Assembly: GCA_964363345.1 (NCBI GenBank)
Contig: CAYIHY010000002.1
Span: 761-64,760 of the forward strand
From: Candidatus Woesearchaeota archaeon
GTDB taxonomy: Archaea > Nanobdellota > Nanobdellia > Pacearchaeales > GW2011-AR1
Length of the DNA: 64,000 nucleotides
Direction of reading: 5' to 3'
Numbering within the stretch: position 1 is the first letter of the stretch; every line of letters starts with the position of its first letter. Shown here piece after piece: positions 10,760-63,782 of the stretch. The notes below the pieces were generated by a model. That model was not told the origin of the DNA and did no database searches. It saw only the letters and a list, made by a program, of their open reading frames with translations. A program made the translations under genes and the position numbers.

Positions 10760-11585
10760 TATCTTTCCAGCCGATTTTCTTTTTCTTTAATCCTACAAGT
10801 TGCAGGAATTGATCTTCAAAAACAGGCTTTTCTTTTTGATAAAAAATTCCTAAAGGAATTTTTTTAACAATATTATAATCAAACTCATCAGCTTTTTTCC
10901 ATGCAGAATTAAAATTAGTCTTATCATGCCCCTCTTTCTGAAGTAAATAAAATTTACCCATATAATTTTTATCTTTGTGAAAAATTATTGACGGTTGAAT
11001 AATCTCTATAAACGCAAATCCTTTGTGTTTCAATGCTTCTTTGAAAACGGATTCAAGCTGTTCCTTCTCAGAAAAAACTCTTGCAACAAAACTCGCTCCA
11101 CTCGCAAGCATTATTTTTATCGGATTTATCGGATACAATTTCACCCCAAGAGGAGTTGTTTTATCTTTGAATCCAATTTCTGTAGTTGGTGTAGGCTGTC
11201 CTCCAGTCAACGCAAAAACCTGATTATTATGAATAAAATATTTGAAGTCAGAATTATATCTTGCAGCATGAATTAAATGTTCCATTCCTTCTGCATATGC
11301 ATCTCCATCTCCAGAAAATCCGATTACACTTAGATTTGGATTTCCAACTTTCATCCCAAGGCAAGTCGGTAAAACTCTCCCGTGGAGTGTGTTTATCCCG
11401 TTTAAATTTATATAATCAAAAATTTTTCCGTGGCATCCAATCCCCGCAACAATCGCAAAATTTTCTTTTTTCTTTCCTCTCTTAATCTCTTCTGCAATTA
11501 CTTTTTTCACACTTGCAAGTATTTGGAAATTAAAACATCCAGGACACCATGTCGGAATTACTGGGGTGTTAAGATTTTCTGTCAT
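10749..11585 (-). CDS. 2-oxoacid:ferredoxin oxidoreductase beta subunit (TPP-binding), copy A
   Basis: 278 aa. Contains WCPGCFNFQ, GIGCHGK and the TPP motif GFSGDGDAYAEGMEH. By eye, about three quarters identical to the 13677..14516 product. Confidence 0.85.
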   Translation of the reverse strand: MTENLNTPVIPTWCPGCFNFQILASVKKVIAEEIKRGKKKENFAIVAGIGCHGKIFDYINLNGINTLHGRVLPTCLGMKVGNPNLSVIGFSGDGDAYAEGMEHLIHAARYNSDFKYFIHNNQVFALTGGQPTPTTEIGFKDKTTPLGVKLYPINPIKIMLASGASFVARVFSEKEQLESVFKEALKHKGFAFIEIIQPSIIFHKDKNYMGKFYLLQKEGHDKTNFNSAWKKADEFDYNIVKKIPLGIFYQKEKPVFEDQFLQLVGLKKKKIGWKDIKR

Positions 11586-11586
11586 T

Positions 11587-12105
11587 TTATAACATCCTCC
11601 CTACAAGGTAAGTATCAACATATCTTCCATCGTCTGTTAAAAGTGCTTTTTTCTTTTCCCCTTCAATTTTAAAACCATTCTTTAATGCCAATTTCCATGA
11701 ACCCTTGTTTTCTATTGCCATTTCTGCCTCTGCTCTTTTGAAACCTTTTTTCTTAGCATATCTTAAAGATTCTTTAAGCAATTTTGTACCAATTCCTTTT
11801 CCTTGGTAATCTGGATGAATTCCCCACCCCATCCCGATTCTGTGCCTTAATCTCCCATTTTTTTTAAATGAAGACATCATTGAACCGACTATCTTTTTAT
11901 TTTTTTTATCTATTGCTATAAATGAAAAAGTATCTGGATTTTTATCTGCAAAATCCTTTCTCATTTTTTCTATCTTCTCCTTATCGGGAGCAAGATTGCT
12001 TCCAGTATATACCCAATTTTTAGTTTCAACACCTACCTTAGTCATCTCGGCAATTCCTTTTTCATCTCCAGATTTTGCTTTTCTAATTATTATTTCATTT
12101 GTCAT
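11587..12105 (-). CDS. GNAT family N-acetyltransferase
   Basis: 172 aa. Acetyl-CoA motif A YQGKGIGTKLLKESLRYAKKKGF. Inserted exactly at the alpha/beta junction of OFOR copy A. Confidence 0.8.
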   Translation of the reverse strand: MTNEIIIRKAKSGDEKGIAEMTKVGVETKNWVYTGSNLAPDKEKIEKMRKDFADKNPDTFSFIAIDKKNKKIVGSMMSSFKKNGRLRHRIGMGWGIHPDYQGKGIGTKLLKESLRYAKKKGFKRAEAEMAIENKGSWKLALKNGFKIEGEKKKALLTDDGRYVDTYLVGRML

Positions 12106-13603
12106 TTGATTCTTTTTTCAATCTCTCCTTAATTTCTAACCTTAATTCATCATTCAAAAATGGTCTGCCATCATATTTCAAAATTTTATTTTTATCTTCA
12201 ATAAAAATTCCAGTTTTTTCTGCAATTAAATTCCCTAATTGCCCTGTTGCATTATTCTCAATTAAAATAATATTTTTTCCTTCAATTTCTTTTTTTATTT
12301 TTTTTGGAAAAGGTTCAAGGTATAAAATCTGCAAAAATTTCGCGTTAATATTTTCCATCGCATCCATCACTGCGCCTTTAGTGCTCCCCCAAAACAAAAC
12401 CACATTCTTTGAATTCTTCCCGTAAGTTTTAAACTGATCAAATTTCTCCGCCTCTTTTTCAATTTCTTTCCTTTTTTTCATTCTTTCATCAACATTCTTT
12501 TTTATTAATTCAGCATCTTCTGTTGCACAGCCGAATTTATCTTTTTCATAACTATTGTATCTGGTTAATTTTGTTGTTTTTCTCGAATGAGTTATAATCG
12601 GATTTTTTTCAAGAGTGTAAGTGCTTTCTGCAAGGTGCTTGTCGCTTAAAACAATAACAGGAATTCCAAATTTTTGTGAAAAATAAAACGCTTGGCTTGT
12701 AAGTTCCTGCGCTTCATTTGGGTCTCCGGGAGCAATAATTAATCTTGGGAATTCCCCATGCCCTGCATGTCTTGCAAGTTCTAAATCTCCCTGAGCAGTA
12801 TAAGTCGCAACTCCCGTGCTTGGCCCCGGACGAGAAGCTAAATAAATCACAAGAGGGACTTCTGCAATCCCTGCTAAACTAAGCGCTTCAGTCATCAAAT
12901 CAAATCCTCCCCCAGAAGTCCCAACCATTGCCTTTGCTCCGGTTATCGCACTTCCGATAGCAGCATTAATCACAGAAATTTCACTTTCCATTTCAACAAC
13001 AAGAATATTTTTTTCGATTTGTTTTTCAGCAAGTTCACTCATAACATTTGTTGCAGGTGTCATCGGATATGCATAGTAAACATCAATCCCGGATTTTATC
13101 GCGCCCTCAGAAATTCCCTGATTCCCATTAATAAAAGTTAATAATTTTTTATTAAGAATAACTTTGCAAACAATTCTTTTCTCATCATTATACCCTTTTT
13201 TTGCTTCCTCTAAATTTTCTTCAAATCTTTCCCCGAGTTCTTTAAGTTCTCTCTCAAGAATTTTAAAATCAAGGCACAAACTTTTGAATAATCTCCCTGC
13301 AAAATACATATTTCCTTCACCTTCTTTTTGAATAATCTCCCCGCCTTTTTTCATTTCTTTCTTATGGATTTTAATTGTATTTTCATCTTGGGCAATAATT
13401 AAATTAATTTGTGAATCATTGCTGTAAACAGGCTTATCAGAAAAAGTAAGAACATTGAAATTGTGTCCTCCGCGAATCAGTGATTGATAATCCCTTGAGA
13501 TAAAAACATAATGTCCCTCTTTTGCGAGCGCCTTTCCCAAAATGCTTGATAGAATATTAACCCCTTGTCCGGCTTTTCCTCCGAATAGTATTGTAAACTT
13601 CAT
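12095..13603 (-). CDS. 2-oxoacid:ferredoxin oxidoreductase alpha subunit (gamma-alpha fusion), copy A
   Basis: 502 aa. N-terminal gamma-type domain (FGGKAGQGVNILS...GGHNFNVL) fused to the alpha domain (YYAYPMTPATNV, GTSGGGFDLMTEA). Confidence 0.85.
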   Translation of the reverse strand: MKFTILFGGKAGQGVNILSSILGKALAKEGHYVFISRDYQSLIRGGHNFNVLTFSDKPVYSNDSQINLIIAQDENTIKIHKKEMKKGGEIIQKEGEGNMYFAGRLFKSLCLDFKILERELKELGERFEENLEEAKKGYNDEKRIVCKVILNKKLLTFINGNQGISEGAIKSGIDVYYAYPMTPATNVMSELAEKQIEKNILVVEMESEISVINAAIGSAITGAKAMVGTSGGGFDLMTEALSLAGIAEVPLVIYLASRPGPSTGVATYTAQGDLELARHAGHGEFPRLIIAPGDPNEAQELTSQAFYFSQKFGIPVIVLSDKHLAESTYTLEKNPIITHSRKTTKLTRYNSYEKDKFGCATEDAELIKKNVDERMKKRKEIEKEAEKFDQFKTYGKNSKNVVLFWGSTKGAVMDAMENINAKFLQILYLEPFPKKIKKEIEGKNIILIENNATGQLGNLIAEKTGIFIEDKNKILKYDGRPFLNDELRLEIKERLKKESNDK

Positions 13604-13676
13604 TTATCCCTCAATTTTATATATAATTTTATTCACTTAACATTATAAACTTTTTTGAATGGTTCATTAAATAGGA

Positions 13677-14516
13677 TTATCGCTTAATATCTTTCCAACT
13701 CATTCCCTTTTTTTTCAATTCAATAATCTGAGGGAACTGCTCCTCAAAAATAAGATTTTCTTTTTGATAAAAAATTCCCAACGGAATTTTTTCCGCAGTA
13801 TTATAATCAAATTCTCCGGCTTTTTTCCAGGCTTCATCAAAATTAGTTTTATCATGTCCCTGTTCTTCTAAAAGATAAAATTTATCTTTGTAATTTTTAT
13901 CGTCATGGAATATCACACACGGCTGCAAAATTTCTATGAATGCAAATCCTTTATGATTCATTGCTTCTTTCAAAACATATTCAATCTGTTTTATGTCTGC
14001 ATTAACTCTCGCAACAAAACTTGCCCCTGATGCGAGCATCAACCTTATTGGATTTAATGGCGGAAGTTTAACATTCAGAGAAGTTGTTTTATCTTTGTAT
14101 CCGATTTCTGTAGTCGGTGTAGATTGTCCTACTGTCAACGCAAAAACCTGATTGTTGCTTACAAAAAATTTGAAATCAGAATTATACCTCGCAGCGTGAA
14201 TCAAATGTTCCATCCCTTCAGCATATGCATCCCCATCTCCAGAAAATCCGATTACATTTAAATTAGGGTCCCCCATTTTTAATCCCAAGCAAGTTGGGAG
14301 AACTCTTCCGTGAACTCCACTGAGTCCGTTAAGATATAAATAATCAAAAATTTTTGCATGGCATCCGATTCCAGAAACAATTGCAAAATCTTCTTTTGTT
14401 TTTCCTGATTTTATTTCTTCTGCGATTACATTTTTTACTGCGACAAGAGTTTGAAAATTAAAACATCCCGGGCACCATGTCGGAATCATCGGAGTTTTTA
14501 ATATTGGGTCAGTCAT
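13677..14516 (-). CDS. 2-oxoacid:ferredoxin oxidoreductase beta subunit, copy B
   Basis: 279 aa. Same motifs as copy A (WCPGCFNFQ, GFSGDGDAYAEGMEH). Its start overlaps the alpha stop (ATGA). Confidence 0.85.
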   Translation of the reverse strand: MTDPILKTPMIPTWCPGCFNFQTLVAVKNVIAEEIKSGKTKEDFAIVSGIGCHAKIFDYLYLNGLSGVHGRVLPTCLGLKMGDPNLNVIGFSGDGDAYAEGMEHLIHAARYNSDFKFFVSNNQVFALTVGQSTPTTEIGYKDKTTSLNVKLPPLNPIRLMLASGASFVARVNADIKQIEYVLKEAMNHKGFAFIEILQPCVIFHDDKNYKDKFYLLEEQGHDKTNFDEAWKKAGEFDYNTAEKIPLGIFYQKENLIFEEQFPQIIELKKKGMSWKDIKR

Positions 14517-16060
14517 TTCAATCTCTCCTTAATTTCTAATCTTAATTTATCTGAAAAAAATGGCCTGCCATCATATTTCAAAATCTTATTTTTATCTTCA
14601 ATAAAAATTCCAGTTTTCTCAGCAATAACTTTTCCAAGTTGTCCTGTTGCATTATTCTCAATTAAAATAATATTTTTTCCTTCAATTTCTTTTTTTATTT
14701 TTGCGAAAGGCTCCAAGTATAAAACCTGCAAAAACTTTGCATCTAAATCTTTAATTCCGTCGATAATTGCTCCTTCCGATGATTTTTTTAAATCGTCGCA
14801 GGAAGATTCTCCGATTGCATCGAGAATCGCTCCTTTCGTGCTCCCCCACGAAACAATAACATTCTCGGAAGTTTCATTTCCATAAATATTAAACTGCGTA
14901 AATTTCTCCGCCCCTTTTTCAATTTCCTGTTCTTTTTTCATTCTTCTATCAACATTTTTTACAATCAATTCAGCATCATCATTTGTGCTGCCAAATTCAT
15001 CGGCTTCATGACTTTGGTATCTCCTTAATGAAGTTGATTTTTCTGAAGAAACTATAACCGGATTTTTATTTAAAGTGTAAGAACTTTCTGCAAGGTGTTT
15101 GTCGCTTAAAACAATAACAGGAATTCTAAATTTTTGTGAGAAATAAAATGCTTGATTTGTAAGTTCTTGTGCTTCTTTAGGGTCCCCAGGAGCCAATATC
15201 ATTCTGAAAAACTCTCCATGCCCCGCGAATCTCATCATTTCTAAATCTCCCTGTGCAGTATAAGTTGCAGCTCCTGTCGACGGACCTGGACGGGAAGCTA
15301 GATAAATAACTAACGGAATTTCTGCGATTCCCAATAAACTAAAAGATTCAGTCATCAAATCAAATCCTCCTCCGCTTGTTCCAATCATTGTTTTCGCTCC
15401 TGTCATCGCGCTTCCAATTGCAGCATTAATAACCGCAGTTTCATTTTCCAATTCAACAACTACAATATTTTTTTCAATTTGTTTCTTGGAAAGTTCAGTC
15501 ATCACATTTGTTGCAGGCGTCATCGGATAAGCATAATACAAATCCAGTCCTGATTTTATCGCACCCTCAGAAACTCCCCGATTCCCATTCATAAAAATTA
15601 ATTTTTCTTTATTAAGAATAACTTTGCAGATTTCTTTTTTCTCTTCTTCATATCCTTTTTTTGCTTCCTTTAAATTTTCTTCAAATTTTTCAAGATTCTT
15701 TAACTCGTCTTCAAGAATTCTAAAATCGACGCATAAAATTTTGAACATTCTTCCAGCAAAATACATATTCTCCCCGCCGTCTTTTTGGATAATCTCCCCT
15801 GTTTTTTTTAATTCCTTCTGATGAATATTAACTGTATTCTGGTCCAAAGCAACTATCAAATCAAATTGCGAATCATTGCTGTTCACAGGCGAATCTGAAA
15901 AAGTCAAAATGTTAAAATTATGCCCCCCTCTTATCATCGACTGATATTCCCTTGACATGAACACGTAGTATCCAATTTTAGTAAGGGCCTGCCCCAGAAG
16001 ATTAGAGAGAATATTTGTTCCCTGCCCAGCTTTTCCACCGAATAAGATATTTACTTTCAT
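14513..16060 (-). CDS. 2-oxoacid:ferredoxin oxidoreductase alpha subunit (gamma-alpha fusion), copy B
   Basis: 515 aa, collinear with copy A. Carries an extra segment (GESSCDDLKKSSEGAIIDGIKDL) near the C-terminus. Confidence 0.85.
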   Translation of the reverse strand: MKVNILFGGKAGQGTNILSNLLGQALTKIGYYVFMSREYQSMIRGGHNFNILTFSDSPVNSNDSQFDLIVALDQNTVNIHQKELKKTGEIIQKDGGENMYFAGRMFKILCVDFRILEDELKNLEKFEENLKEAKKGYEEEKKEICKVILNKEKLIFMNGNRGVSEGAIKSGLDLYYAYPMTPATNVMTELSKKQIEKNIVVVELENETAVINAAIGSAMTGAKTMIGTSGGGFDLMTESFSLLGIAEIPLVIYLASRPGPSTGAATYTAQGDLEMMRFAGHGEFFRMILAPGDPKEAQELTNQAFYFSQKFRIPVIVLSDKHLAESSYTLNKNPVIVSSEKSTSLRRYQSHEADEFGSTNDDAELIVKNVDRRMKKEQEIEKGAEKFTQFNIYGNETSENVIVSWGSTKGAILDAIGESSCDDLKKSSEGAIIDGIKDLDAKFLQVLYLEPFAKIKKEIEGKNIILIENNATGQLGKVIAEKTGIFIEDKNKILKYDGRPFFSDKLRLEIKERLK

Positions 16061-38282: not shown

Positions 38283-38382
38283 TTTTTTGCTTACGATATT
38301 TGATGTAAAAAGAGTTAGAAAAATATTTTCTGTTTTTTGCTTACGATATTTTATCTAAAAGGAGTTAGAAAAAAATTTCCTA
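38283..38382. repeat. Tandem direct repeat, 2 x 50 bp, between the two large surface-protein genes
   Basis: Unit 1 (38283..38332) is ttttttgcttacgatatttgatgtaaaaagagttagaaaaatattttctg. Unit 2 (38333..38382) is ttttttgcttacgatattttatctaaaaggagttagaaaaaaatttccta. The first 19 nt are identical and a handful of mismatches follow. Confidence 0.85.
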
Positions 38383-41007
38383 TTTTTTTCTTAATATCTT
38401 TTTTTTGAAAATTAATCCGACGTAAATTAATGCAATTATAACAACTGAACCAATCATCCCAAGATAATCAAAGAAAGGAAGCTGAACTTGTGCAGGGCAT
38501 AAAGCAGTTATTGGTTTATCTGCTAAATGAATACACCAATCATATATTTTTCCTTTTTTTGTCGAGTCTGCCCCAGTCCATGTTCCAGTTGCAACTATTG
38601 TTTGATATCCTACTGGCTCAACATCACAATTTTTTGTAATTGATTGACTAATTTTGCATAAACCGAAAGTTAGAGGTCCTACGGAATTATAACATTTTTC
38701 GGAACGGCAAAATAAATTTCTTGAACAAGAATCTAAATCTCCGTCTTTGCAATCTGCAGATGAACATCCCTCCCCTAAATCACATTTTCCGTCATTATTT
38801 GATAGCGATTCGTCTCCAGTTGGACAAACATTTCCAAAATAACAGTAATTTCTTGAAGGCGAAGAACCTGCCTTGTGACATAATGTATAACCATAACTAC
38901 AGGTTGGGTCTACTATCGGAAGAATTGAAGAATAGCAAGTTCCAGCAGAACAAAGAAGTCCGCTCGTGCAAGTATCTTGTTTGCCTTCACAATCTGCGCA
39001 GGTACATCCCTCTTCACCAAATTCACAAACTCCATCATTGTTGCAATGAGATGATGTTCCACAATCTTTTGTTCCAACAACTGCTCCACAAACTTCTCCT
39101 GCACTATTATAAGTTAAATCTGTTGTGCCACTGCAAATAGACGATGCGGGAGGTAATGTTGGACAAACTGCGGTACATGTTTTTGTTCCAAGAACAGTTC
39201 TGCAAACCACTCCCGTACTAGTATCTAAAATATTAAATTGATCTGTACCACTGCAAACTTCATCATTTGTGGGATGAGTTGGACATCCTCCAGTTCCACA
39301 ATCTTTTGTTCCAACAACTGCTCCACAAACTTCTCCTGCACTATTATAAGTTAAATCTGTTGTGCCACTGCAAATAGACGATGCGGGAGGTAATGTTGGA
39401 CAAACTGCGGTACATGTTTTTGTTCCAAGAACAGTTCTGCAGACTACTCCGGTACTAGTATCTAAAATATCAAATTGAGCCGTACCGCTGCAAACTTCAT
39501 CATTTGTGGGATGAGTTGGACATCCTCCAGCCCCTGGACAAGTATTTCCGGGATAACAATAACTTGCTCCGCTTGTATCAAAACATAAAGTATAACCATT
39601 TCCACATCCATTAGTTGAACCGGTACATTGTGTTGTATCAAATGAACAACGTGAGTCACAACTTAATGTTCCGCCTGTAAAGACGCTATTAACATCATGG
39701 CATGTTTTTCCGCTAAGGGCTGTTCCATCACAAACTTCTCCAGTATTTATAGTTCCATCTCCGCAACTTCCGGTTGTTCCTCCTGTGCAGGCAAAAGTAT
39801 CCCATTTGCATGGATTTGAAGAAGTAGGAGAGCCACAATTTAAAGTTCCTCCTGTAAAACTATCAAAGTTACTGCAAGTTTTTCCGTCTAATCCCAAAGT
39901 AGGTTCACAATCTTCTCCGGCACTTACGATTTCATCACTGCAGGTAGGAGTAAAAGGATTAATCGGTCCAGAAGTAAATCCGCATGTGCTAGTAGTTGTA
40001 TCCCAAGCACATGCACAATTAGTATCTGAAGCAGTGCAATCAACTCCGACGCTAGTTCCCTGCTCTACAAGATTAACCGAACAAGGAGTATTTGTATTAC
40101 ATTGATTTGCATCTTTATACTTGTCACAAGTTACTATTCCCGCACAATCTGCATCTGAAGGTTTTTTAACTAATAATAAAGGATTTTCACTTGTTTTTGT
40201 TTTAGTTGTGTCAGAAACTAATGTTGCAGTAAAAGAATATGATGGATCAGCAGTTCCAAAAATTCCAGTTCCCTGCCATTCAGTTGTCCATTCCCCTTTC
40301 GCAGTGTCATCACTAAATGGAACATTTACCGGATTTGTCGTCGCAGATGGAGAAGTTGTAAATGAAACACTTTTTCCTCCGCATTCCGAACCACTTCCTT
40401 TAACTACAAGAAATGCTTTTTGTCCAGTTAATGCGCTGTCAGAAGAGCTAACAGGATTAATCCCATCTAAACTCCAAAATGCTCTATCAAGAGTACACGG
40501 ATAAGTTAATGTTCCAGAACAGCATATTTTTGTTGAGTAATCCGCGAATGCTCCAATGTGCGCGTTTGTAGTAGCAGATAGGGAAAGAACTCCGATGTTA
40601 TTTGTTGGGCAAGTGGTAGTAGAATAAGCACAACTTAAATCTCCATAACAAACATTATTTGTTGCAGAATAAATATTAGACAAAGGTTCTTCAGCATGGG
40701 CATTTATCGAAGATGAAAGTCCAATAATTTTATTTGCTCCATTACAATCAGTAACTCCATCTCCAAAACCACAGCATAAAACAGAATCATATACTGGAGT
40801 TTGTTTATTTAATTGTCCATGAGCGTTTGTCGGTGCAGAAAGCCCCATTATTACATATCCGTTTGTTATATCATTAGTGCAGTCTGCCCTTGTAGAGATG
40901 ATACATGTTCCTGCTGAAGGCACCGCAGCAAAAATTCCAGAAATTAAAAAAGAAAATATAATTAGCGCAAAAAATAATTTACCTATCACTTCTTTTTTCA
41001 TCTTCAT
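38380..41007 (-). CDS. Very large Cys/Thr/Gly-rich surface protein with a C-terminal TM anchor
   Basis: 875 aa. N-terminal signal LFFALIIFSFLISGIFAA, cysteines spread along the whole length, three LS-x-x-(T/I)-NAH modules, an internal 79-aa exact-type duplication, and a C-terminal TM plus KKKILRKK. Confidence 0.7.
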   Translation of the reverse strand: MKMKKEVIGKLFFALIIFSFLISGIFAAVPSAGTCIISTRADCTNDITNGYVIMGLSAPTNAHGQLNKQTPVYDSVLCCGFGDGVTDCNGANKIIGLSSSINAHAEEPLSNIYSATNNVCYGDLSCAYSTTTCPTNNIGVLSLSATTNAHIGAFADYSTKICCSGTLTYPCTLDRAFWSLDGINPVSSSDSALTGQKAFLVVKGSGSECGGKSVSFTTSPSATTNPVNVPFSDDTAKGEWTTEWQGTGIFGTADPSYSFTATLVSDTTKTKTSENPLLLVKKPSDADCAGIVTCDKYKDANQCNTNTPCSVNLVEQGTSVGVDCTASDTNCACAWDTTTSTCGFTSGPINPFTPTCSDEIVSAGEDCEPTLGLDGKTCSNFDSFTGGTLNCGSPTSSNPCKWDTFACTGGTTGSCGDGTINTGEVCDGTALSGKTCHDVNSVFTGGTLSCDSRCSFDTTQCTGSTNGCGNGYTLCFDTSGASYCYPGNTCPGAGGCPTHPTNDEVCSGTAQFDILDTSTGVVCRTVLGTKTCTAVCPTLPPASSICSGTTDLTYNSAGEVCGAVVGTKDCGTGGCPTHPTNDEVCSGTDQFNILDTSTGVVCRTVLGTKTCTAVCPTLPPASSICSGTTDLTYNSAGEVCGAVVGTKDCGTSSHCNNDGVCEFGEEGCTCADCEGKQDTCTSGLLCSAGTCYSSILPIVDPTCSYGYTLCHKAGSSPSRNYCYFGNVCPTGDESLSNNDGKCDLGEGCSSADCKDGDLDSCSRNLFCRSEKCYNSVGPLTFGLCKISQSITKNCDVEPVGYQTIVATGTWTGADSTKKGKIYDWCIHLADKPITALCPAQVQLPFFDYLGMIGSVVIIALIYVGLIFKKKILRKK
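39057..39530. repeat. Near-perfect in-frame tandem duplication, 2 x 237 bp, inside the Cys-rich surface protein gene
   Basis: Unit 1 (39057..39293) and unit 2 (39294..39530) differ at only about seven positions by eye. Each encodes GGCPTHPTNDEVCSGT(A/D)QF(D/N)ILDTSTGVVCRTVLGTKTCTAVCPTLPPASSICSGTTDLTYNSAGEVCGAVVGTKDCGT. Confidence 0.9.
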
Positions 41008-42789: not shown

Positions 42790-43929
42790 CTATTCTAAAC
42801 CCCCTTTCATTTTTATACTTCCACTTTGTGAATATAATAATTCTTCTTTGGAGAGCAGTCTTTTATTTTGTTTTAAAGCGATAGCATTTTTCAAATAAGT
42901 TAAAGAATAAATTAATCCGTGAATATTCCTTCTTGAATTTTCTTCAAATTGCATAGCCCGCCTCTTTTGCTCTTCTGATTTTTCAATATTGTATCTGACT
43001 GCTTCTTCAGTAATTCTTTGAGTTTGTAATTGTTCTTTAATCCTCTCAAAATAATTTTTATCTCCTAATATAAATTCTGAATTAGTCACTAATCCAGTTA
43101 TAGAAACATCAAACATCTTAATCATTTTTTCAAAATAATCTTCTCTTTCAACTCTTACATCCAGCCATGAACAATCGGTTTCAGGTAGATTATCCGAAAC
43201 AACAAACATATCAATATCTGAAAATTCTTTTCGTGAACCATAAAGAATAACTAATTTTGCTTCTTTTAATCTTTCACCATAAATGTCATTTAACAATCTC
43301 TTTGCTCTTTCCAGAGCGGTTCTTCTTGCTAATCCAAAATTATAAAATGTTGCTAAATCTCCATAGGTTTTATTAAATGAAATAAGTTCATCAATTGAAT
43401 TTTTCCTTTCTTGATTCACAGAATCATATTTTTTTTCAAATAAATTCTTCAAATTAAATTCTTTAGAAAGAAAATATTCTGTCCAAACAGCAAATCCTTC
43501 ATATAATCCGAGATTTTCTTTTTGTAACTCCCTTAATCTTAAAAAGACTTCATTTCCTTCTCTAAATTCGTTAATTTCTTCGGAAATAAATTGTTTATCT
43601 TTGAAATATTCTTTTTCTTTTTCCAATAAACTTTTTTCTAAACCAACCAATTCTCTTCCAGCTAAATTGTGTTCACAATAAAGTCCATGTCCAAAATACT
43701 CATGAAATAGGCTTAATCTGTTTCCTGCAGGAATAATTGCAGTTTGATTTCGAGGTAAATAAATTCCAGAAGAATTTTTATCAAAATCAAATCCTTTGCA
43801 AAAAGAAGTCCATTGTTTTGGATTTAATTGTTTTAATTCCGTTTTTTCCGTAGAATAACCCAATAATTCCTTATAACTTTTATTAGCTTGAATAACTAAT
43901 TCTTGAATACCAGAAGGTTCTTCGTCCAT
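42790..43929 (-). CDS. Fusion protein: N-terminal zincin-like domain (HEYFGH ... YEGFAVW) plus a C-terminal minimal-nucleotidyltransferase-like domain
   Basis: 379 aa. LFHEYFGHGLY (HExxxH spacing) and, ~65 aa downstream, LGLYEGFAVWTEYF resemble the gluzincin His/His/Glu arrangement. VILYGSRKEFSDIDMFVVSD resembles the GS...DxD NTase motif. A helical C-terminus follows. Confidence 0.5.
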   Translation of the reverse strand: MDEEPSGIQELVIQANKSYKELLGYSTEKTELKQLNPKQWTSFCKGFDFDKNSSGIYLPRNQTAIIPAGNRLSLFHEYFGHGLYCEHNLAGRELVGLEKSLLEKEKEYFKDKQFISEEINEFREGNEVFLRLRELQKENLGLYEGFAVWTEYFLSKEFNLKNLFEKKYDSVNQERKNSIDELISFNKTYGDLATFYNFGLARRTALERAKRLLNDIYGERLKEAKLVILYGSRKEFSDIDMFVVSDNLPETDCSWLDVRVEREDYFEKMIKMFDVSITGLVTNSEFILGDKNYFERIKEQLQTQRITEEAVRYNIEKSEEQKRRAMQFEENSRRNIHGLIYSLTYLKNAIALKQNKRLLSKEELLYSQSGSIKMKGGLE

Positions 43930-43984
43930 ATAAATTTTATTCGAGTAAACTATTTAAACTTTATGTTTTGTTACTATTGTATAA

Positions 43985-45667
43985 TTAATTCATCCAATTC
44001 ATTCCTAAAATATCATCTAATTTTTCTCTCGGCAAATATGTATTTTCATAAATAATTTTACCTGCTTTTTCATCAGCAACTCCTGGATTTACAATATCCC
44101 ATGCGGGAATCATAATTGTTTTATCTGTTGATAAAGTTGCTAATATTTTTGCTTCTCCATTAGGTGCAATAAATACATGTCCAAATTCATGAGGCCCCAC
44201 GGGATCATTATAAACCGCATGTTCTGGTCGTATTTCAATAATGCTTCGATTAATAATCCCACTTGCAGAAGTTCCATTTAAATAAAAATTTGTTGTTTTA
44301 CCCGCGATGGCATTTCCGTACATGTCCTTAACATTTGAATTTGGAACTTCAATTACCCATCCTTCATCAGGAATAATAAATCCGTTAGCAATAGTATAAT
44401 GTTTTACTAAAGAATCATCTATGACATTTTGAAATGCTTCTCCCCCGATAAATTTCCTTATGCCTGTGGGAGAAGTAAATTCATCTATCAAATAACCTAT
44501 TTTAGCATTATCAAAAGAATCTGCTGAATTATTTGTTAATGGATTTTGTTTTAAAATCTGAACGTTTTTAGTAATTGACTTTTTTAATCCATCTTTATTA
44601 GGGAAATATCCCTGTCCGAAATTTATTTCCCCCATAGAATTTTTAAAATCTGTTGCATCAAAAAAAGAACCATCAGAATATCCATATCTACTAACTCTAA
44701 TTTTATTTGTTAAATCCTGATCTTTTGTTCCGTCGAGAGTTAATGTTCTTATGTAACTTGTTTCTGCTCCGCCAACTTTGTTAAATCGAGCTTGCAATTT
44801 TACTTGTGCAACTGGAGAACTCGCATGAAAACTAAAATTTCCGTCACTTGAATTTATGTCTGATAAAAGAGTTGTTCCATCGTAAATTCTAACTTCTCCT
44901 GCTGAATTTGTCAAGGTTTCAACATCTTGTAAATTTCCAGTTATATCTAATAAATTTTTTTCTGTTAAGGTATAATTTTGTTTTGTTGTATTTGTTCCAT
45001 CAGAGACATCTATTCCAACATCCTCATTTGTGTCTGCACTTATTGCGGGAGGTGACCCAGAAACTAACCAAGTTGAAGAATTTATTTGGTTTGCAGATAA
45101 CCAGGAAGGTTTTACTAAACATGTTAAATTGTCTCCTTCTGGATAATTAACTGTTACTTGATAATTATAAGAATTTCCTTCCTCAACTGTTAATATCGGA
45201 GACGAAGTTATTACCGGAGCATAATTTACTGGCGGATTTATAACGTCATCCAAAGCAACAATTTCTAATCTCGCTGTTCCTTTTAAACTCAAATCCAAAT
45301 TATCTGTGCCTTGTGCGATGAAGCTATATGTTCCAGCTTTAGTTGGAGTCCAAGAGTAATTTTTTATAGGAGAATCTTGTTTTATTAGTTCTAAATCTCC
45401 TGCATCAATTATCCCATTGCTATTATTATCTAATGCAATTAAGTGATTTGCAATTCCATTTTCGTCTGTTCCGTCTGCATTTAGGTAAATCGAGGTTCCA
45501 ACTTTAGTTGAAGATTGAGAAGAGCTGATGCTCTCTTTTGGAGCATAATTTGTTGTAGTAATAATCGGCTCGCAACCAAAAAAAACAAGGGAGGCTAAAG
45601 CTAATATTCCCGCCTTTACTCTTTTTATCTTGCTTTTTAATATATTATTTTCTAGTGTTTTAACCAT
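43985..45667 (-). CDS. Secreted, probably lipid-anchored protein with cadherin/Ig-like repeats and a C-terminal HExxH zinc-protease motif
   Basis: 560 aa. Lipobox-like signal ALASLVFFGC, Ig-like YAPVITSSPILTVEEGNSYNYQVTV, and C-terminal VGPHEFGHVF. Confidence 0.6.
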   Translation of the reverse strand: MVKTLENNILKSKIKRVKAGILALASLVFFGCEPIITTTNYAPKESISSSQSSTKVGTSIYLNADGTDENGIANHLIALDNNSNGIIDAGDLELIKQDSPIKNYSWTPTKAGTYSFIAQGTDNLDLSLKGTARLEIVALDDVINPPVNYAPVITSSPILTVEEGNSYNYQVTVNYPEGDNLTCLVKPSWLSANQINSSTWLVSGSPPAISADTNEDVGIDVSDGTNTTKQNYTLTEKNLLDITGNLQDVETLTNSAGEVRIYDGTTLLSDINSSDGNFSFHASSPVAQVKLQARFNKVGGAETSYIRTLTLDGTKDQDLTNKIRVSRYGYSDGSFFDATDFKNSMGEINFGQGYFPNKDGLKKSITKNVQILKQNPLTNNSADSFDNAKIGYLIDEFTSPTGIRKFIGGEAFQNVIDDSLVKHYTIANGFIIPDEGWVIEVPNSNVKDMYGNAIAGKTTNFYLNGTSASGIINRSIIEIRPEHAVYNDPVGPHEFGHVFIAPNGEAKILATLSTDKTIMIPAWDIVNPGVADEKAGKIIYENTYLPREKLDDILGMNWMN

Positions 45668-58055: not shown

Positions 58056-60683
58056 TTAAGTTTTTGAAACTTTTTTCTTCCTGATTAATTTTTCTATCTC
58101 AAGGAATACAAATCCTAAAGAAGAAAGTCCCACAGCTAAAATTAATTCATTAAAAGAAATTGCAGTTAATCCTAATATCTGCGACAGCGGGGTGTAAATT
58201 GCAGCTAACTGCAATCCTGCAGCGATTAAAATAGAGATTAAAAGAAATTTATTGCTGAATAATCCAATTTCCCAAATGTTTCTTTTTTCTGAACGGCATG
58301 CAAGAGCGATAAAAAATTCACTGAATATAAAATAAGTAAGAGTTATTGTCCTTGCTTTTCCTAAATCCTGATAAAAAGACGAGAACAAAATAAGAGATAT
58401 AACTGCCGATAAAACTCCCGCGAAGATTATGAATTTGTAAATTCCTTTTAATATATCTTCATTTGAATTTATTGATCTTCTTTTCATAATATCTTTCTCT
58501 TCTTTTTCTACGCTAAGCGCAAGACTCGGAAGTGCGTCAGTAACTAAATTCATCCACAAAATCGCGAGAGGAAGCATAGGCAAAGGAAGCGAAATCAGGA
58601 GTGCCGTAAGAACAAGAAGCAGTTCGCCGAAATTTGCAGAGAGATGAAACTTGATTGACTTTTTCATGTTGTCATAAACTTTTCTTCCTTCTCTTATTGC
58701 ATTTACAATTGTTCCAAAATTATCATCAAGCAAAATAATATCTGCAGATTCTCTCGTAACATCTGTTCCTCTTATTCCCATTGCAATTCCGATATGCGCC
58801 TCTTTTAGAGCAAGAACGTCATTAATTCCGTCGCCCGTTACTGCAATTATTTCTTTTTGTTTTTTTAATGACTGGATAATTTTTAGTTTAAGTTCTGGGG
58901 TTATCCTCGCAAAAATAGTTTTCTCTCTGACTGCCAGGTCAAATTCATGCGGGGAAAGTTTTTCAAGTTCAACCCCGTTAATTGATTCTTCGTTGATATC
59001 AATCATTTTTGCAATTGCCTTTGCAGTTAATTCAGAATCTCCTGTAATCATTTTTATTTCTATTCCTGCAGTTTTGCATTCTCTGATTGCAGTCCTGACT
59101 TCTTTTCTTGGAATGTCCAGCATCCCCTGAAACCCTAAAAAAATCAGCTCGCTTTCAGCATTTTCCTGGCTGAATTTTTCTTTAATCTCTTTGAATGCAA
59201 ATGCCAGAATTCTAAGTGATTTAGAAGCCATCTTGTCGTATTCTCTTAAAATTTCTTTTTTCCTTTTTTCATTTAAATTTATAACTTTGCCGTTGACAAG
59301 TTCTCTCGAACATTTTTTGAGGATTACATCTGGAGCTCCTTTTGAATAATTTACAAAGTCGCCGTTTTTTCTTCTTATTATCGACATCATCTTCCTGCTC
59401 GAAGAAAAAGAATATTCTCTTATTCTGGTTTCTTTTTCAAGTTCGGCCTTTTTTACAAATCCAGCATTGTAAGCAGAAACAATGAGCGCTTTTTCCGTTG
59501 GGTCTCCTAAAACCTCCACTTTTTTATTTTTTATTTCAAGATGCGCATTGTTGCACATTACCCCTGTTTTTAAAACCTGCATCAGGCCAGGATTTTTTTC
59601 TGGAGAAATTTTTTTGCCGTTAAGAAAAAAAGAATTATCTTTCATTTCAAAATGATTATTATCACAGTAGATTTTTGTCACAGACATTTTTTCTTCAGTT
59701 AGTGTTCCTGTTTTGTCTGTGCAGATTACTGTAACTCTTCCTAAAGTTTCTGCAGCAGGGAGTTTTCTGACTAAGGCATTGTATGTTTGCATTCTTTTTA
59801 TTGCGAAAGCAAGAGTGATTGAAATTACTGCAGGCAGCCCTTCAGGAATAACACTGACCGCGAGGGAAATTCCTGCAAGAATCATGCTGAACATTTCTTC
59901 TCCGTTGTTTACCCCGAGGATAATTGTGATTATAGTTAAAATTAAAACTCCCGCAGCAACTTTTTTTGAAAATGAATCCAGTTTTTCTTCGAGAGGAGTT
60001 TTTTTCATTTTTATTTTCTGGACAAGTCCGGCAATTCTTCCGAATTCAGTTTCCATTCCTGTCGCAACAACAACTGCCATAGCATTTCCTCTAACAATGG
60101 TTGTTCCCGCATAAAGTATATTTTCTCTGTCAGCAAGTGCAGCTCCGAAAATTATTTTTTCAGAAGATTTATCCTGAGGAAAACTTTCTCCTGTAAGAAC
60201 CGCTTCATTCGCCTGCAATTCATTAACTTGCAATAATCTGCAGTCTGCAGTTATCTTGTCCCCCTCAGAAACCATTATTATATCTCCGACGACAACACCA
60301 GATGATTGAATTTCAGAAATTTTTCCTTCTCTGATAACTTTAACTTTTGGAACAATAAGTTCCCTCATTTCAATAATTATTTTTTCTGCTTTATACTGCT
60401 GGAAAAATCCGATAAATGAATTAATCACCACTACTACCATTATGACCCCAAAATCAACATAATGTTTTATAAAAAAAGAAAAAATCGCCGCTGCAAATAA
60501 AATTAATACAAAAACTGATTTGAATTGTTCAAGAAAAATAGCAAACGGGCGCATTTTTGAAGTCTGTTTGATTTCGTTTTTCCCGTATTTTTTTAATCTT
60601 GCAGAAGCCTCTTTCTCACTAAGCCCATTCTCACTTGTCTTTAACTTTTGCAAAACCTCTTTTTTATCTAATGCATGCCACAT
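58056..60683 (-). CDS. P-type cation-transporting ATPase (P2, Ca2+-ATPase-like)
   Basis: 875 aa. N-terminal cation-ATPase domain (LSEKEASARLKKYGKNEI), TGES (LTGESFP), phosphorylation site CTDKTGTLT, and hinge TGDGINDVLALK. Confidence 0.9.
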   Translation of the reverse strand: MWHALDKKEVLQKLKTSENGLSEKEASARLKKYGKNEIKQTSKMRPFAIFLEQFKSVFVLILFAAAIFSFFIKHYVDFGVIMVVVVINSFIGFFQQYKAEKIIIEMRELIVPKVKVIREGKISEIQSSGVVVGDIIMVSEGDKITADCRLLQVNELQANEAVLTGESFPQDKSSEKIIFGAALADRENILYAGTTIVRGNAMAVVVATGMETEFGRIAGLVQKIKMKKTPLEEKLDSFSKKVAAGVLILTIITIILGVNNGEEMFSMILAGISLAVSVIPEGLPAVISITLAFAIKRMQTYNALVRKLPAAETLGRVTVICTDKTGTLTEEKMSVTKIYCDNNHFEMKDNSFFLNGKKISPEKNPGLMQVLKTGVMCNNAHLEIKNKKVEVLGDPTEKALIVSAYNAGFVKKAELEKETRIREYSFSSSRKMMSIIRRKNGDFVNYSKGAPDVILKKCSRELVNGKVINLNEKRKKEILREYDKMASKSLRILAFAFKEIKEKFSQENAESELIFLGFQGMLDIPRKEVRTAIRECKTAGIEIKMITGDSELTAKAIAKMIDINEESINGVELEKLSPHEFDLAVREKTIFARITPELKLKIIQSLKKQKEIIAVTGDGINDVLALKEAHIGIAMGIRGTDVTRESADIILLDDNFGTIVNAIREGRKVYDNMKKSIKFHLSANFGELLLVLTALLISLPLPMLPLAILWMNLVTDALPSLALSVEKEEKDIMKRRSINSNEDILKGIYKFIIFAGVLSAVISLILFSSFYQDLGKARTITLTYFIFSEFFIALACRSEKRNIWEIGLFSNKFLLISILIAAGLQLAAIYTPLSQILGLTAISFNELILAVGLSSLGFVFLEIEKLIRKKKVSKT

Positions 60684-60871
60684 CTTTTATAATTATTAAA
60701 AGAAAAAATTACTTAATAAAATTATTGATAAAACAAATTATAGACCGAGCGATTTCACAAGTTCAAGAATTTTCTCCGCAGAAACTTTTAAAAAAAGTTT
60801 AGAGGACAATAACAAACCTGAGAATTATTTAATCAGCCTTGAGCAGTATCTTAAAGGGAAAATCATGTTCA

Positions 60872-60958
60872 GAAAACCAAATTGTAGACTCGAAGGTTTG
60901 CTCTGCGCGAATGAAATGAGTGCATTGAAAACCAAATTGTAGACTCGAAGGTTTGCTC
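60872..60958. repeat. Direct repeat, 2 x 32 nt (identical), separated by 23 nt
   Basis: gaaaaccaaattgtagactcgaaggtttgctc occurs at 60872..60903 and again at 60927..60958. The spacer is tgcgcgaatgaaatgagtgcatt. Confidence 0.9.
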
Positions 60959-61197
60959 ATAAAAACCAAAAAGCTTCCTCTATTCTTTCTCGGCTCTGTT
61001 TTCTGTTAAGCATCTCAACAAATGTTTAGGGCTGCTTCGATCAGGATCTGACCCGTTTCGCATCTGCAAGATCAAAACAGGCAAAGCGTCAACGTCCGAA
61101 TAAAGACTCCTCGACATTTAATCACTTGCCTTCTTGCAGTCTGCATAAAGCTCACTTGCAAATAGCGGAGAGCTACCCCGCTGACCTAGTCTACAAA
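60927..61197 (-). ncRNA. Candidate structured non-coding RNA, possibly SRP (7S) RNA
   Basis: No ORF >=60 aa on either strand across 60684..61278. Hand-counted G+C is ~44% over 60961..61200 versus ~27% in the next 60 nt. The 5' UUGUAGACU (61196..61188) is perfectly complementary to the 3' AGUCUACAA (60945..60937), which is followed by a U-rich tract. Internal GGGUCAGAUCCUGAUCGAAGCAGCCC (61054..61029) resembles the conserved SRP helix 8 sequence. Further long-range complements are CUGCAAG/CUUGCAG and GGCAAG/CUUUGCC. Confidence 0.4.
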
Positions 61198-61213
61198 TAT
61201 ATCACAAAATTAG

Positions 61214-61223
61214 AATATTTAAG
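61214..61223 (-). promoter_or_regulatory. TATA-like box upstream of the candidate ncRNA
   Basis: Minus-strand CTTAAATATT is preceded by a purine-rich CGAAAC (BRE-like). It is centred ~25 nt upstream of the proposed 5' end near 61196. Confidence 0.3.
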
Positions 61224-61278
61224 GGTTTCGATTAAATTCCGAGTTAGTCGAATGTAAAATTTCCTATTTTACTTTTGA

Positions 61279-61653
61279 TTAGCGTTTTAAAAATTTTCTT
61301 GTGACAAACAGGCTTTCAAGGAAAAGAGTATCCTCTTTAACTTCATCCAATGTCCGATGGAGTTCATTTAATTGTTCTATAACATAACCCGAATTCCAAA
61401 CCAATCTTTCCACGACGTCAAAATCTCTTTCACTAATATCTCCGCTTTTTGCATATTCGCTAATAACCCCTAATGCATCTTCAAAATAAGCATAAGAATC
61501 TTCTGGATAAAACCGATTCATTTTTTCATAAAGATCTTTTGTTTTAAGGATTAATGAACATAATCCCTCTTTTTTCTTCAAAGGTAAACTAGAATCTAAT
61601 ATTTTTTTCTGCTGCACTTCAATAAAAGAATAAAATTCGTTGCGGGATTCCAT
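61279..61653 (-). CDS. Hypothetical helical protein (124 aa)
   Basis: ORF only. Starts 1 nt after the upstream ORF stop. Confidence 0.45.
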   Translation of the reverse strand: MESRNEFYSFIEVQQKKILDSSLPLKKKEGLCSLILKTKDLYEKMNRFYPEDSYAYFEDALGVISEYAKSGDISERDFDVVERLVWNSGYVIEQLNELHRTLDEVKEDTLFLESLFVTRKFLKR

Positions 61654-61654
61654 T

Positions 61655-62170
61655 TTATTTTTTTTGATGTCTCATATTTCTGATAATTTGCCCAACTGTC
61701 AGATTGATATCATTAGCTTTATTTTGAACTTTATCAATGTCCCTTCCATCGGCATTTTTTTCTTCTAATATAAACCTAAGATTTTTTTCAGTTTCTTTTA
61801 AATTTTCTCCAATTGCACGTTCTTTTTTGAGAATTTCATCTAATGTTCCCCCTGCATATTTCATATTGCAAACAGTAATTTGCATATTTACAACTGTGTC
61901 TCGTAAAAGAGGCAAACTTTTTTCAACAGTTAAAAAAAGTCTAGCAAGACCTTTATACATTTCTTGAAAAGCAATTCCAAGATGTTCAGCACTCCCTTTT
62001 AAATCAATTTGTTTTTGTTCTTCATATCTCTGTATTGTTTCATCAACGATATGATACAATCTATCTTTTTCAGATTCAGAGATTTCAAAAGATTTTATCT
62101 CTTCTCTTTTTAATTTTATTAATTTATAGAACGTTTCATCTGACTCAAGGCTAGAATAATATCCATCCAT
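61655..62170 (-). CDS. Hypothetical helical protein (171 aa)
   Basis: ORF only, K/E-rich and coiled-coil-like. Confidence 0.45.
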   Translation of the reverse strand: MDGYYSSLESDETFYKLIKLKREEIKSFEISESEKDRLYHIVDETIQRYEEQKQIDLKGSAEHLGIAFQEMYKGLARLFLTVEKSLPLLRDTVVNMQITVCNMKYAGGTLDEILKKERAIGENLKETEKNLRFILEEKNADGRDIDKVQNKANDINLTVGQIIRNMRHQKK

Positions 62171-62243: not shown

Positions 62244-63782
62244 TTATTTTCCTCTTCTTCTAACTACTACCAAAACTATTGTTCCAGCAATAACAATCAT
62301 TAAAAATAAAATTGCAGGAACTCCTGCTCCTGAATTTATAAGTCCAGTAACTGCTCCAGTAAGGAAACTAAAAAAACCTTTATTATTTGGGGTTTCAGTT
62401 GTTGTCGGAGTTTCACTGCTCAATGGAGTTACTTCATTGTTTATCTTAACATTGTTAACACTTTGAAGGGAATTATTTTGCACAATTCCATCTCCTCCAG
62501 AACTTCTTGAGAAAGCCGTTGATTCTCCAATCATAAATATTGAAAAGTGAGGTGTTGTTGCGGTATAAGTATACTCAGTTGCAGTTTCACCATCGTAATG
62601 TGTTGTAAGTTTTGTCCAACTTGTTCCTTCCCACACATATAAGTTTATCCTATCTTTATTAACCCCCTCTTTATTAATTGAAAAAGAAATTTGTGCTGCT
62701 CCTGAAGTTGGTTGATTTCCGTTTGTATCTATAACTAAGTATTTTAATCCTTGAGTGTGACTTAAAGTATTTACATCTGCAGGCTTAACATCAGAAACTT
62801 GAATTTCAACAAGAGTTCCTGTTGGAAGCCCAACAATAGAATTGATTATTTGTTTAACTCCAAAATCAGATGGAACATAAGTATTGCTCGTTGTTGTTTC
62901 TCCAGCTTCATTAACTATTCCGCTTAAAACAAGAGTAATTGTTTTTGTTATTGGAGTTGTATCTCCAGTTAAGGGAGTAATTGTTACGGGTATTTGATAA
63001 GTTCCGTCTTGGAATGCTAAATTATTAAGGTTTACACTTACATCGTAATCTGTGTTTTCTAATACTGCATTAGTAAATTCTATTTCACTAACACTATAAC
63101 CTAATTCTTGCAACACAGGAAGGTAATCTGAAAGTGAAATTGATGGAAGAAGATTCTGCTCTATAACATTTTGAACATTCATAGAATTAACCCCTCTTGT
63201 TATTGCTTCGCCTATTTGATTTTTATAATAACCTTGAACATTTCCAAATCCGCCATCATATCCGAATGTGTAAGTAATTCCATTTTTAACGAAATAAGAA
63301 TTTCCCTGTACCGGAACCGGAAGAGGAGTTTGTAAAGCTAAGTTTGTAAGCACTTGACTATCTTGGGTAACTTCCCCAGTAAAGGTAGATGTAGAAATTT
63401 GATTTAATAATAAATTTAATAGTGCTTTCTCAGAACTAAGGACTTCTGGAAAAATTTCTAATGAAGGAGTACTAGAAATACTAACTTGTGAAAATACTGG
63501 AAAAGTTGAACCATCGCTTAAATCCATTCTTAAATTAATTCCATTTAATATTCCAGAAATAGGAACATTTATTGTAGAATATCCATTGAAAGGAATAGGT
63601 AATTGAATAACTTGATTATCAAAGCTTAATCCAGCAGTATTCATAGAAAAAACGCCAGTAGTAGAATCTTGAGTCATAGTTATAGTCAAATCACTGCTTG
63701 ACATAAATTCTTGCAATGGTGTTGCACTTACAAATCCGATTAATAAAATTGCTGAAACTAAAAATAAAAATGTTTTGTTCAT
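62244..63782 (-). CDS. Surface protein with a PGF-pre-PGF-like domain, a Thr/Pro linker, a C-terminal TM and a basic tail
   Basis: 512 aa. Signal FLFLVSAILLIGFVSA. YVWEGTSWTKLTTHYDGETATEYTYTATTPHFSIFMIG resembles the archaeal PGF-pre-PGF domain. C-terminus is SSETPTTTETPNNKGFFSF...VPAILFLMIVIAGTIVLVVVRRRGK. Confidence 0.6.
   Translation of the reverse strand: MNKTFLFLVSAILLIGFVSATPLQEFMSSSDLTITMTQDSTTGVFSMNTAGLSFDNQVIQLPIPFNGYSTINVPISGILNGINLRMDLSDGSTFPVFSQVSISSTPSLEIFPEVLSSEKALLNLLLNQISTSTFTGEVTQDSQVLTNLALQTPLPVPVQGNSYFVKNGITYTFGYDGGFGNVQGYYKNQIGEAITRGVNSMNVQNVIEQNLLPSISLSDYLPVLQELGYSVSEIEFTNAVLENTDYDVSVNLNNLAFQDGTYQIPVTITPLTGDTTPITKTITLVLSGIVNEAGETTTSNTYVPSDFGVKQIINSIVGLPTGTLVEIQVSDVKPADVNTLSHTQGLKYLVIDTNGNQPTSGAAQISFSINKEGVNKDRINLYVWEGTSWTKLTTHYDGETATEYTYTATTPHFSIFMIGESTAFSRSSGGDGIVQNNSLQSVNNVKINNEVTPLSSETPTTTETPNNKGFFSFLTGAVTGLINSGAGVPAILFLMIVIAGTIVLVVVRRRGK

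Follow-up and report, generated by a model that had tools for sequence, protein, structure and literature searches.

The question addressed here is which gene, if any, occupies the gap between a P-type ATPase gene (58056..60683, minus strand; Pfam matches to E1-E2_ATPase and related domains) and a 124-aa open reading frame (ORF; 61279..61653, minus strand) in a 64,000-nt stretch of contig CAYIHY010000002.1, referred to below as the window. The contig derives from a groundwater metagenome of Hainich, the sample being labelled 01um. An earlier reading of the DNA without database searches (the sequence-only reading) had described an ORF-free, GC-enriched island in this gap and had proposed that it encodes a signal recognition particle (SRP) RNA or another structured RNA. 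The description of the island holds: the gap contains no ORF of 60 aa or more, the longest being 45–46 aa, and the G+C content of 60939..61194 is 44.9%, compared with 23.8% and 26.1% in the adjoining spacers (61195..61278 and 60684..60871, respectively) and 32.6% in the whole window. Almost certainly, the island encodes the SRP RNA of a Nanoarchaeota/Pacearchaeota-like archaeon of the DPANN group, whose members have small cells and reduced genomes, and its product is a structural variant, new for archaea, of a known kind of RNA.

No match was found in the whole window at Rfam gathering thresholds. Below them, the search revealed a single match with E ≤ 0.1, to the SRP family RF01854 (Bacteria_large_SRP), located at 61193..60940 on the minus strand and covering the whole model (positions 1–256). 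Its score is 55.4 bits, the gathering score being 60 bits, with E = 1.8e-7 when an 801-nt region is searched and 1.4e-5 when the window is searched as a whole. The alignment to RF01854 places helix 1, helices 2–4, helix 5 with a GUUGA/GCCGAG loop, and helix 8 with a CAGN/AGCA symmetric loop. For overlapping matches within the SRP clan (CL00003) only the best family is reported, and one lower-scoring member is hidden. The S domain alone (61083..61003) matches the full model of RF00169 (Bacteria_small_SRP) with 27.3 bits (gathering threshold 40). With 63.2 bits, an orthologue in L141 exceeds the RF01854 gathering score. Scores are 55–63 bits in the archaeal clade and about 200 bits for bona fide large SRP RNAs of bacteria. 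The island is missed by standard annotation thresholds because its RNA lacks helix 6 and resembles the Bacillus-type bacterial RNA.

A scan of metagenomes with the helix 8-like string GGGUCAGAUCCUGAUCGAAGCAGCCC (61054..61029, minus strand) returned 32 loci, 23 of which are AT-rich contigs with the archaeal RNA. These 23 relatives come from other metagenomes and share 84–96.5% identity over the RNA. In an alignment of 18 sequences including the flanks (17 of them full-length relatives), similarity starts at GUAGAC and stops directly after GUCUAC. Mean pairwise identity in this alignment is 90% over the RNA and 88% over the promoter block, and only 26% downstream of the RNA and 38% further upstream. 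The promoter (61215..61230, minus strand) consists of CGAAACC, which resembles a transcription factor B recognition element (BRE; 61230..61224), followed by the TATA box CTTAAATAT (61223..61215). The TATA box shows no variation in any of the 18 aligned loci and is centred ~25 nt upstream of G61194, a spacing characteristic of archaeal promoters; the minus-strand promoter predicted by the sequence-only reading is thus in place. The sharp limits of conservation, together with the promoter geometry, define a discrete gene of 256 nt at 60939..61194 on the minus strand, extending from GUAGAC to GUCUAC and coinciding with the RF01854 match. A discrete minus-strand gene had been anticipated, with a length of ~270 nt and a comparison to archaeal RNAs of ~300 nt; its size is corrected here to 256 nt, which is of the Bacillus type. 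A P-type ATPase gene lies downstream of the RNA in the window and in L128, L138, L141 and L149, showing that the loci are orthologous.

The secondary structure was evaluated in an alignment of 16 distinct sequences, to which all statements below on pairing and invariance refer. The model combines a rod predicted by RNAalifold with an Alu-domain model comprising helices 1, 2, 3 and 4 and a 5-bp loop-loop pairing. RNAalifold predicted independently that a long helix 5 rod ends in helix 8. In the structure of 86 pairs, 99.3% of the cells are paired, and double changes, which affect both partners, are seen in 12 of the pairs (27 cells), values not attained by any of 500 shuffles. When the 3' partners were slid by 1–3 columns as a control, 36–48% of the cells were paired and no more than three pairs had double changes. 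The double changes fall in helix 1, helix 3, the loop-loop pairing, and several segments of helix 5. The sequence-only reading had left its proposal to an Rfam search and to an alignment of relatives; the former gave the sub-threshold match over the whole SRP model, and the latter gave both conservation and covariation. The model match, the confinement of conservation to the RNA and TATA box, and the covariation for an SRP fold together bear out the proposal of an SRP RNA.

Helix 1 joins the ends of the RNA, with a 5' strand GUAGACU (61188..61194) and a 3' strand AGUCUAC (60939..60945), both on the minus strand. All seven pairs are 100% paired, and pair 9:257 is changed from A-U to G-C in L152. 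U11 and A255 are both absent in four relatives, and U11 alone is absent in two others. The closing helix recognised earlier was based on a 9-nt complement between UUGUAGACU (61196..61188) and AGUCUACAA (60945..60937). This complement is exact in the window, while the relatives keep of it only GUAGAC/GUCUAC and one U-A pair.

The motifs of the Alu (small) domain, which the sequence-only reading was unable to place with confidence, are present at 61138..61186 (minus strand), where helices 2–4 were aligned by Infernal to the Alu helices of RF01854. Helix 2 (61183–61186 with 61138–61141), helix 3 (61164–61182) and helix 4 (61142–61160), all on the minus strand, are 100% paired, and pair 17:35 occurs as A-U, G-U and G-C. 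Helix 3 corresponds to the AGCGG/CCGCU hairpin noticed earlier and includes one pair with a change on both sides. The loops AGCUC of helix 3 (61170..61174, minus strand) and GAGCU of helix 4 (61149..61153, minus strand) form the 5-bp tertiary pairing, in which all five pairs are 100% paired and pair 28:47 is changed from U-A to C-G in two relatives. A longer helix 3 (8 bp with a 3-nt loop), as drawn by Infernal, was rejected, since its inner pairs are lost in relatives (G23 to U) and the larger pairing loop fits better.

Helix 5 has its 5' strand at 61061..61133 and its 3' strand at 60947..61024 (minus strand) and is defined by both covariation and RNAalifold. In this helix (alignment helices 6–11), 9 of 55 pairs change on both sides and 97.6–100% of the cells are paired per segment; for example, GAAGG/CCUUC is replaced by GAGUG/CACUC. 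Two further long-range complements suggested by the sequence-only reading, CUGCAAG/CUUGCAG and GGCAAG/CUUUGCC, show no compensatory change, do not hold in the relatives that diverge most, and compete with helix 5, which covariation supports; they were therefore abandoned. Helix 5 is interrupted by an internal loop, in which ACGUUGA (61089..61095, minus strand), invariant in the alignment, faces GCCGAG (60989..60994, minus strand). The loop aligns to the conserved cGUuGAc / gAgCcA positions of RF01854.

Helix 8 (61025..61060, minus strand) is the predicted binding site of the SRP54 M domain. In agreement with the resemblance reported earlier, it is aligned with helix 8 in both RF01854 and RF00169. 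It consists of an asymmetric loop CGAAAC/UAAA, a stem GGGU/GCCC, a symmetric loop CAGA/AGCA, and an apical stem UC/GA. The helix is invariant save for G/A in CAG(A/G) and C/U in the asymmetric loop, and the string used for the scan varies among the relatives only at the one G/A position.

The 5' strand of helix 5 is separated from helix 8 by only 6 nt (CGAAAC), and no unpaired stretch anywhere in the model exceeds 6 nt. Hence, there is no room for helix 6.

A GNRA or GRRA tetraloop at the apex of helix 8 is a near-universal feature of SRP RNAs. In the window, the apex is CUGAUC (61039..61044, minus strand), i.e. a UGAU tetraloop closed by a C.C mismatch, and UCC-UGAU-CGA is invariant in the alignment. 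The sequence-only reading had pointed to the non-GNAR loop as a caveat, which is correct, and an identical apical sequence was found in some bacterial SRP RNAs. Specifically, UCCUGAUCGA is present in the GTDB Acholeplasmatales genome L036 and in the flank-matching metagenome contigs L140, L146, L153 and L158, and L140 passes the Bacteria_small_SRP threshold at 45.4 bits. Thus, the GNRA tetraloop is usual but not absolute in SRP RNAs, and bacterial SRP RNAs scoring above Rfam thresholds include some with an apex identical to that of the window. A scan of a genome collection with a helix 8 pattern proved too generic, as the matches listed are bacterial SRP RNAs with URRY/UGAC apices. Among these listed matches, UCC-UGAC-GGA apices are common in bacteria, with UGAC loops frequent in Bacillota, Sphingomonadales and Planctomycetes. 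A helix 8 tetraloop closed by C.C was also observed in the Planctomycetes L024, L048 and L049 as well as in L036, L140, L146, L153 and L158, the closed forms being UCC-UAAC-CGA (Planctomycetes) or UCC-UGAU-CGA. A non-GNRA, mismatch-closed apex therefore recurs in unrelated lineages. One 2-kb contig labelled as a Methanosarcinales metagenome-assembled genome (L021, CAZRHO010000135.1) carries a bacterial, Clostridia-like helix 8 string, GUCAGAUCCUGACGGAAGCAGCAUUAAGG, and is probably a mis-binned bacterial contig.

Comparison with the known SRP RNAs places the archaeal RNA closest to RF01854, the family of the Bacillus subtilis scRNA (6S type). The two share helix 1, Alu helices 2–4, a long helix 5, helix 8 and the lack of helix 6, and their lengths agree (256 nt and 256 model positions). 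Thus, the architecture of RF01854, with helices 1–5 and helix 8, no helix 6 and ~260–270 nt, is that found in the archaeal RNA. They further share the GUUGA/GCCGAG internal loop, the helix 8 loops, and a non-GNRA apex as present in some bacteria. The archaeal RNA differs in its host and promoter, in its far lower score against the model, and in the closure of the tetraloop by C.C. With RF01857, the archaeal 7S RNA of, for example, Methanocaldococcus and Archaeoglobus, it has in common an archaeal host, helix 1, an Alu domain with a contact between the loops of helices 3 and 4, helix 5, and the SRP54-binding loops of helix 8. In contrast to RF01857, it lacks helix 6 with the GNAR-loop site for SRP19, and with it the adenosine clamp between helices 6 and 8, it is ~45–50 nt shorter than the archaeal norm of ~300 nt, the helix 8 loop is UGAU rather than GRRA, and the linker is AUUUG in place of UGUNR. 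The 4.5S RNA (RF00169) has the same symmetric and asymmetric loops in the S domain but includes neither an Alu domain nor helix 1, and the window RNA scores below the threshold of this family.

The 81 archaeal SRP RNAs surveyed in a 2010 review (PMC2905702) are uniform, with a length of ~300 nt and helix 6 in all, and SRP19 was found in every group; SRP19 and helix 6 coexist in archaea, and the archaeal helix 8 loops are GRRA only. Published surveys of marker genes report SRP19 to be missing from Woesearchaeota and some other DPANN lineages: PF01922 (SRP19) is one of the archaeal CheckM markers that 152 Woesearchaeota genomes lack (PMC8421398), and it is also listed as absent from Parvarchaeales and Jingweiarchaeales (PMC10134863). 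For Nanohaloarchaeota, a standard archaeal SRP RNA is reported (PMC10266531). No description of an archaeal SRP RNA without helix 6 was found in the literature searched. In a lineage without SRP19, an RNA without helix 6 is to be expected; we infer that SRP19 is absent from the genome studied here, which would fit the structure of the RNA. None of the 38 window ORFs scanned against Pfam, which represent 64 kb of the genome, encodes SRP19, SRP54 or FtsY.

Other explanations of the locus concern either the origin of the RNA or its nature. A bacterial-type SRP RNA could have been acquired by the ancestor of the clade and have replaced the archaeal gene, so that helix 6 was not lost. This is consistent with the assignment of both the whole RNA and the S domain to bacterial families of the SRP clan (RF01854 and RF00169, the latter with 27.3 bits), with the bacterial-like character of the apical UCCUGAUCGA and its GUCAG...AGCAGC flanks, the apex being matched in Acholeplasmatales and the flank-matching contigs, and with the restriction of archaeal loops to GRRA in the 2010 review (PMC2905702). 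However, an archaeal RNA that had lost helix 6 would equally favour a model without helix 6, and the clade remains far from the ~200 bits reached by true large SRP RNAs of bacteria. By BLAST, the only similarity to the bacterial loci is a 34-nt core of helix 8, so that any transfer would have to be ancient. The gene also has an archaeal promoter and a stable position beside the P-type ATPase gene in at least five loci. A recent transfer does not agree with these data; they are compatible both with an ancient one and with a loss of helix 6 followed by drift, acquisition from bacteria being considered improbable.

That the conserved element is something other than an SRP RNA has far less in its favour. 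An internal ORF of 45 codons (60980..61117, minus strand) is uninterrupted in each of the 16 relatives, where it starts with ATG or GTG and ends at an unchanged position with TAG, TAA or TGA, and it might encode a protein instead of or besides the RNA. However, its variable sites divide 8:10:15 among the first, second and third codon positions and radical replacements are numerous, conservation goes beyond the ORF by ~77 nt upstream and ~41 nt downstream, up to the very ends of the RNA, and the variable positions of the stop codon are G/A opposite U in supported pairs. The compensatory changes and the SRP model match account for the conservation, and the coding interpretation was rejected as highly improbable on the strength of the codon-position pattern, the wider conservation and the compensatory changes. 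The element is also on the same strand as the P-type ATPase gene, 255 nt upstream of its start, and adjacent to it in the window, L128, L138, L141 and L149, as would be a cis-acting 5' leader or regulatory RNA. Against such a role, or that of a different structured RNA, conservation stops sharply at the 3' strand of helix 1 and the spacer to the ATPase gene is unalignable; unrelated genes (Fic/DOC and DUF2283) stand between the RNA and the ATPase gene in L149, and L135 has a toxin cassette behind the RNA. With no other Rfam family matching and the fold being that of SRP RNA, there is very little to recommend this explanation.

Several observations weigh against the identification as an SRP RNA gene without helix 6 and SRP19, and should be set beside the evidence in its support. 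The window copy scores below the Rfam gathering threshold (55.4 vs 60 bits), the 5' Alu piece alone gives no Rfam match, and helix 8 is devoid of the GNRA/GRRA tetraloop. The relatives are close (at least 84% identity), so that many pairs never vary and independent covariation events are few. Loss of SRP19 rests on papers about neighbouring lineages, and neither SRP54 nor FtsY was found among the window ORFs scanned.

In the proposed mechanism, the gene would be transcribed from its own TATA/BRE promoter to give an RNA of ~256 nt, whose ends pair as helix 1. The Alu domain is locked by the loop-loop pairing, and helix 5 runs directly into helix 8. By analogy with the biology of other SRPs, the symmetric and asymmetric loops of helix 8 would bind the M domain of SRP54, and the RNA would serve as a scaffold for SRP54 on the ribosome and speed its interaction with FtsY. 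The helix 8 apex would aid docking of the GTPase domains of SRP54 and FtsY, and the Alu domain would be expected to reach the elongation-factor site of the ribosome. The ACGUUGA/GCCGAG loop is presumably a candidate distal docking site for these GTPase domains, as in the bacterial 4.5S RNA. The lack of helix 6 and the UGAU apex point to a two-component particle free of SRP19; most likely, it is a bacterial-style SRP composed of SRP54 and RNA. Loss of the adenosine clamp between helices 6 and 8 may be the reason why the GRRA constraint at the apex is relaxed.

The 3' end of the gene is duplicated in the window. A 32-nt exact direct repeat, which escaped the sequence-only reading, has one copy at 60927..60958 (minus strand), comprising the last 20 nt of the RNA gene and 12 nt downstream (AAUUUGGUUUUC), and a second at 60872..60903 (minus strand), which is the displaced or duplicated 3' end of the RNA, 55 nt downstream of the first. 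None of 100 shuffles gave two matches. The oligo-U sequence UUUGGUUUU, previously taken for a terminator, lies within the duplicated segment and is not conserved in relatives, and this assignment was withdrawn. Two U5 runs are located inside the RNA, in the 3' strand of helix 5 (60961–60972, minus strand, GCUUUUUGGUUUUUAUG); among the relatives, the first is variable and the second mostly retained. As oligo-T is the usual termination signal in archaea, termination at these internal runs would need to be avoided or tolerated.

Extra copies of the last 19–36 nt of the gene are present downstream of it in five of ~23 loci, namely in the window, L142, L149, L128 and L135. In L142 (169–301), a 57-nt unit is present in three copies. 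L149 (10266–10342) and L128 (169–245) each have two copies 58 nt apart that differ at one or two positions. In L135 (411–1036), 36-nt exact repeats enclose a cassette of ~555 nt with a PemK/MazF toxin gene (Pfam E = 4.6e-11) and a 70-aa ORF. In this clade, the gene's 3' end seems to be a hot spot of insertion or duplication, with tandem units of 55–58 nt that repeat its last 19–32 nt. Accessory, toxin-antitoxin-like genes seem to gather around the locus. In L149 (7628–10219), the RNA and the P-type ATPase gene are separated by two inserted genes, one of the Fic/DOC family (396 aa) and one for a DUF2283 protein (123 aa), and a gene of the nucleotidyltransferase type (MNT-like) lies upstream of the RNA. 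The pattern resembles integration at the 3' ends of genes for tRNA and transfer-messenger RNA (tmRNA), in that the direct repeats are copies of the terminal part of a small RNA gene at its 3' end, the repeat copies differ slightly as at attL/attR, the junctions that site-specific integration leaves behind, and a toxin-antitoxin cargo is present in L135. It differs in that the target is an SRP RNA gene and that most cases are tandem units of 55–58 nt without cargo. No integrase was seen at the repeat loci, and no match to the repeat core or an attP was obtained in viral contigs. An array of clustered regularly interspaced short palindromic repeats (CRISPR) was also considered (CRISPR-DR21, 18 bits, E = 3.5) and rejected; spacers of different genomes are homologous and those within L142 do not differ, which indicates tandem duplication and not a CRISPR array.

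The host of the gene is an archaeon. Genes of the window are archaeal and include those for FttA/aCPSF1 with a KH domain, Mre11/Rad50-like proteins, RtcB, an archaeal CCA-adding enzyme, exosome RNase PH subunits, the proteasome alpha subunit, FlaI/ArlJ-like proteins, and a PGF-pre-PGF protein. A protein encoded next to the SRP RNA gene carries the NCBI label 'Nanoarchaeota archaeon', and FttA homologues with 80–98% identity are labelled Pacearchaeota, Nanoarchaeota or Nanoarchaeia. Apart from the SRP RNA, searches with ARAGORN and Rfam detected no RNA gene in the 64 kb, tRNA genes in particular not being found by ARAGORN. In L136 (9822–9965), a tRNA match extends over 144 nt, which suggests a tRNA with an intron and is consistent with an archaeal host of the relatives. 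Two tandem gene sets for pyruvate/2-oxoacid:ferredoxin oxidoreductase (PFOR) are located at 10749–16060 (minus strand), each with a fused gamma-alpha-like subunit (502 or 515 aa) and a beta subunit (278 or 279 aa). PFOR is rare in Pacearchaeales and common in the sister order with the GTDB placeholder SCGC-AAA011-G17 (proposed Maxwellarchaeales; median G+C 31%), according to a 2026 preprint, and the organism may belong to the latter order. Among the remaining genes, large ORFs without a Pfam match (875, 379 and 560 aa) were observed within 38380–41007, 42790–45667 and 62244–63782, all on the minus strand. The 171-aa ORF at 61655–62170 has no homologue but itself among 5.8 billion proteins, and the 512-aa ORF upstream has a PGF-pre-PGF domain only.

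As a whole, the findings may be read as describing the first class of archaeal SRP RNA with neither helix 6 nor a GNRA apex, the RNA counterpart of the loss of SRP19, which forms part of a two-component SRP and whose gene offers its 3' end as an attachment site for small mobile cassettes with toxin-antitoxin genes. This combined reading is put forward tentatively, with confidence somewhat short of evenly balanced. If true, it would show that a reduction of the SRP to the two-component design of bacteria is possible in archaea, and the clade would provide a natural test of the contributions of helix 6 and SRP19. The bacterial-type apex poses the question of whether helix 6 was lost or an ancient transfer took place. 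From the insertions flanked by repeats, it seems that an SRP RNA gene can serve as a target of mobile DNA, a role that is usually given to tRNA and tmRNA genes. As the score lies just under the threshold, threshold-based pipelines would leave an essential housekeeping gene of these archaea unannotated, and the alignment of 16 sequences could seed a covariance model for the family.

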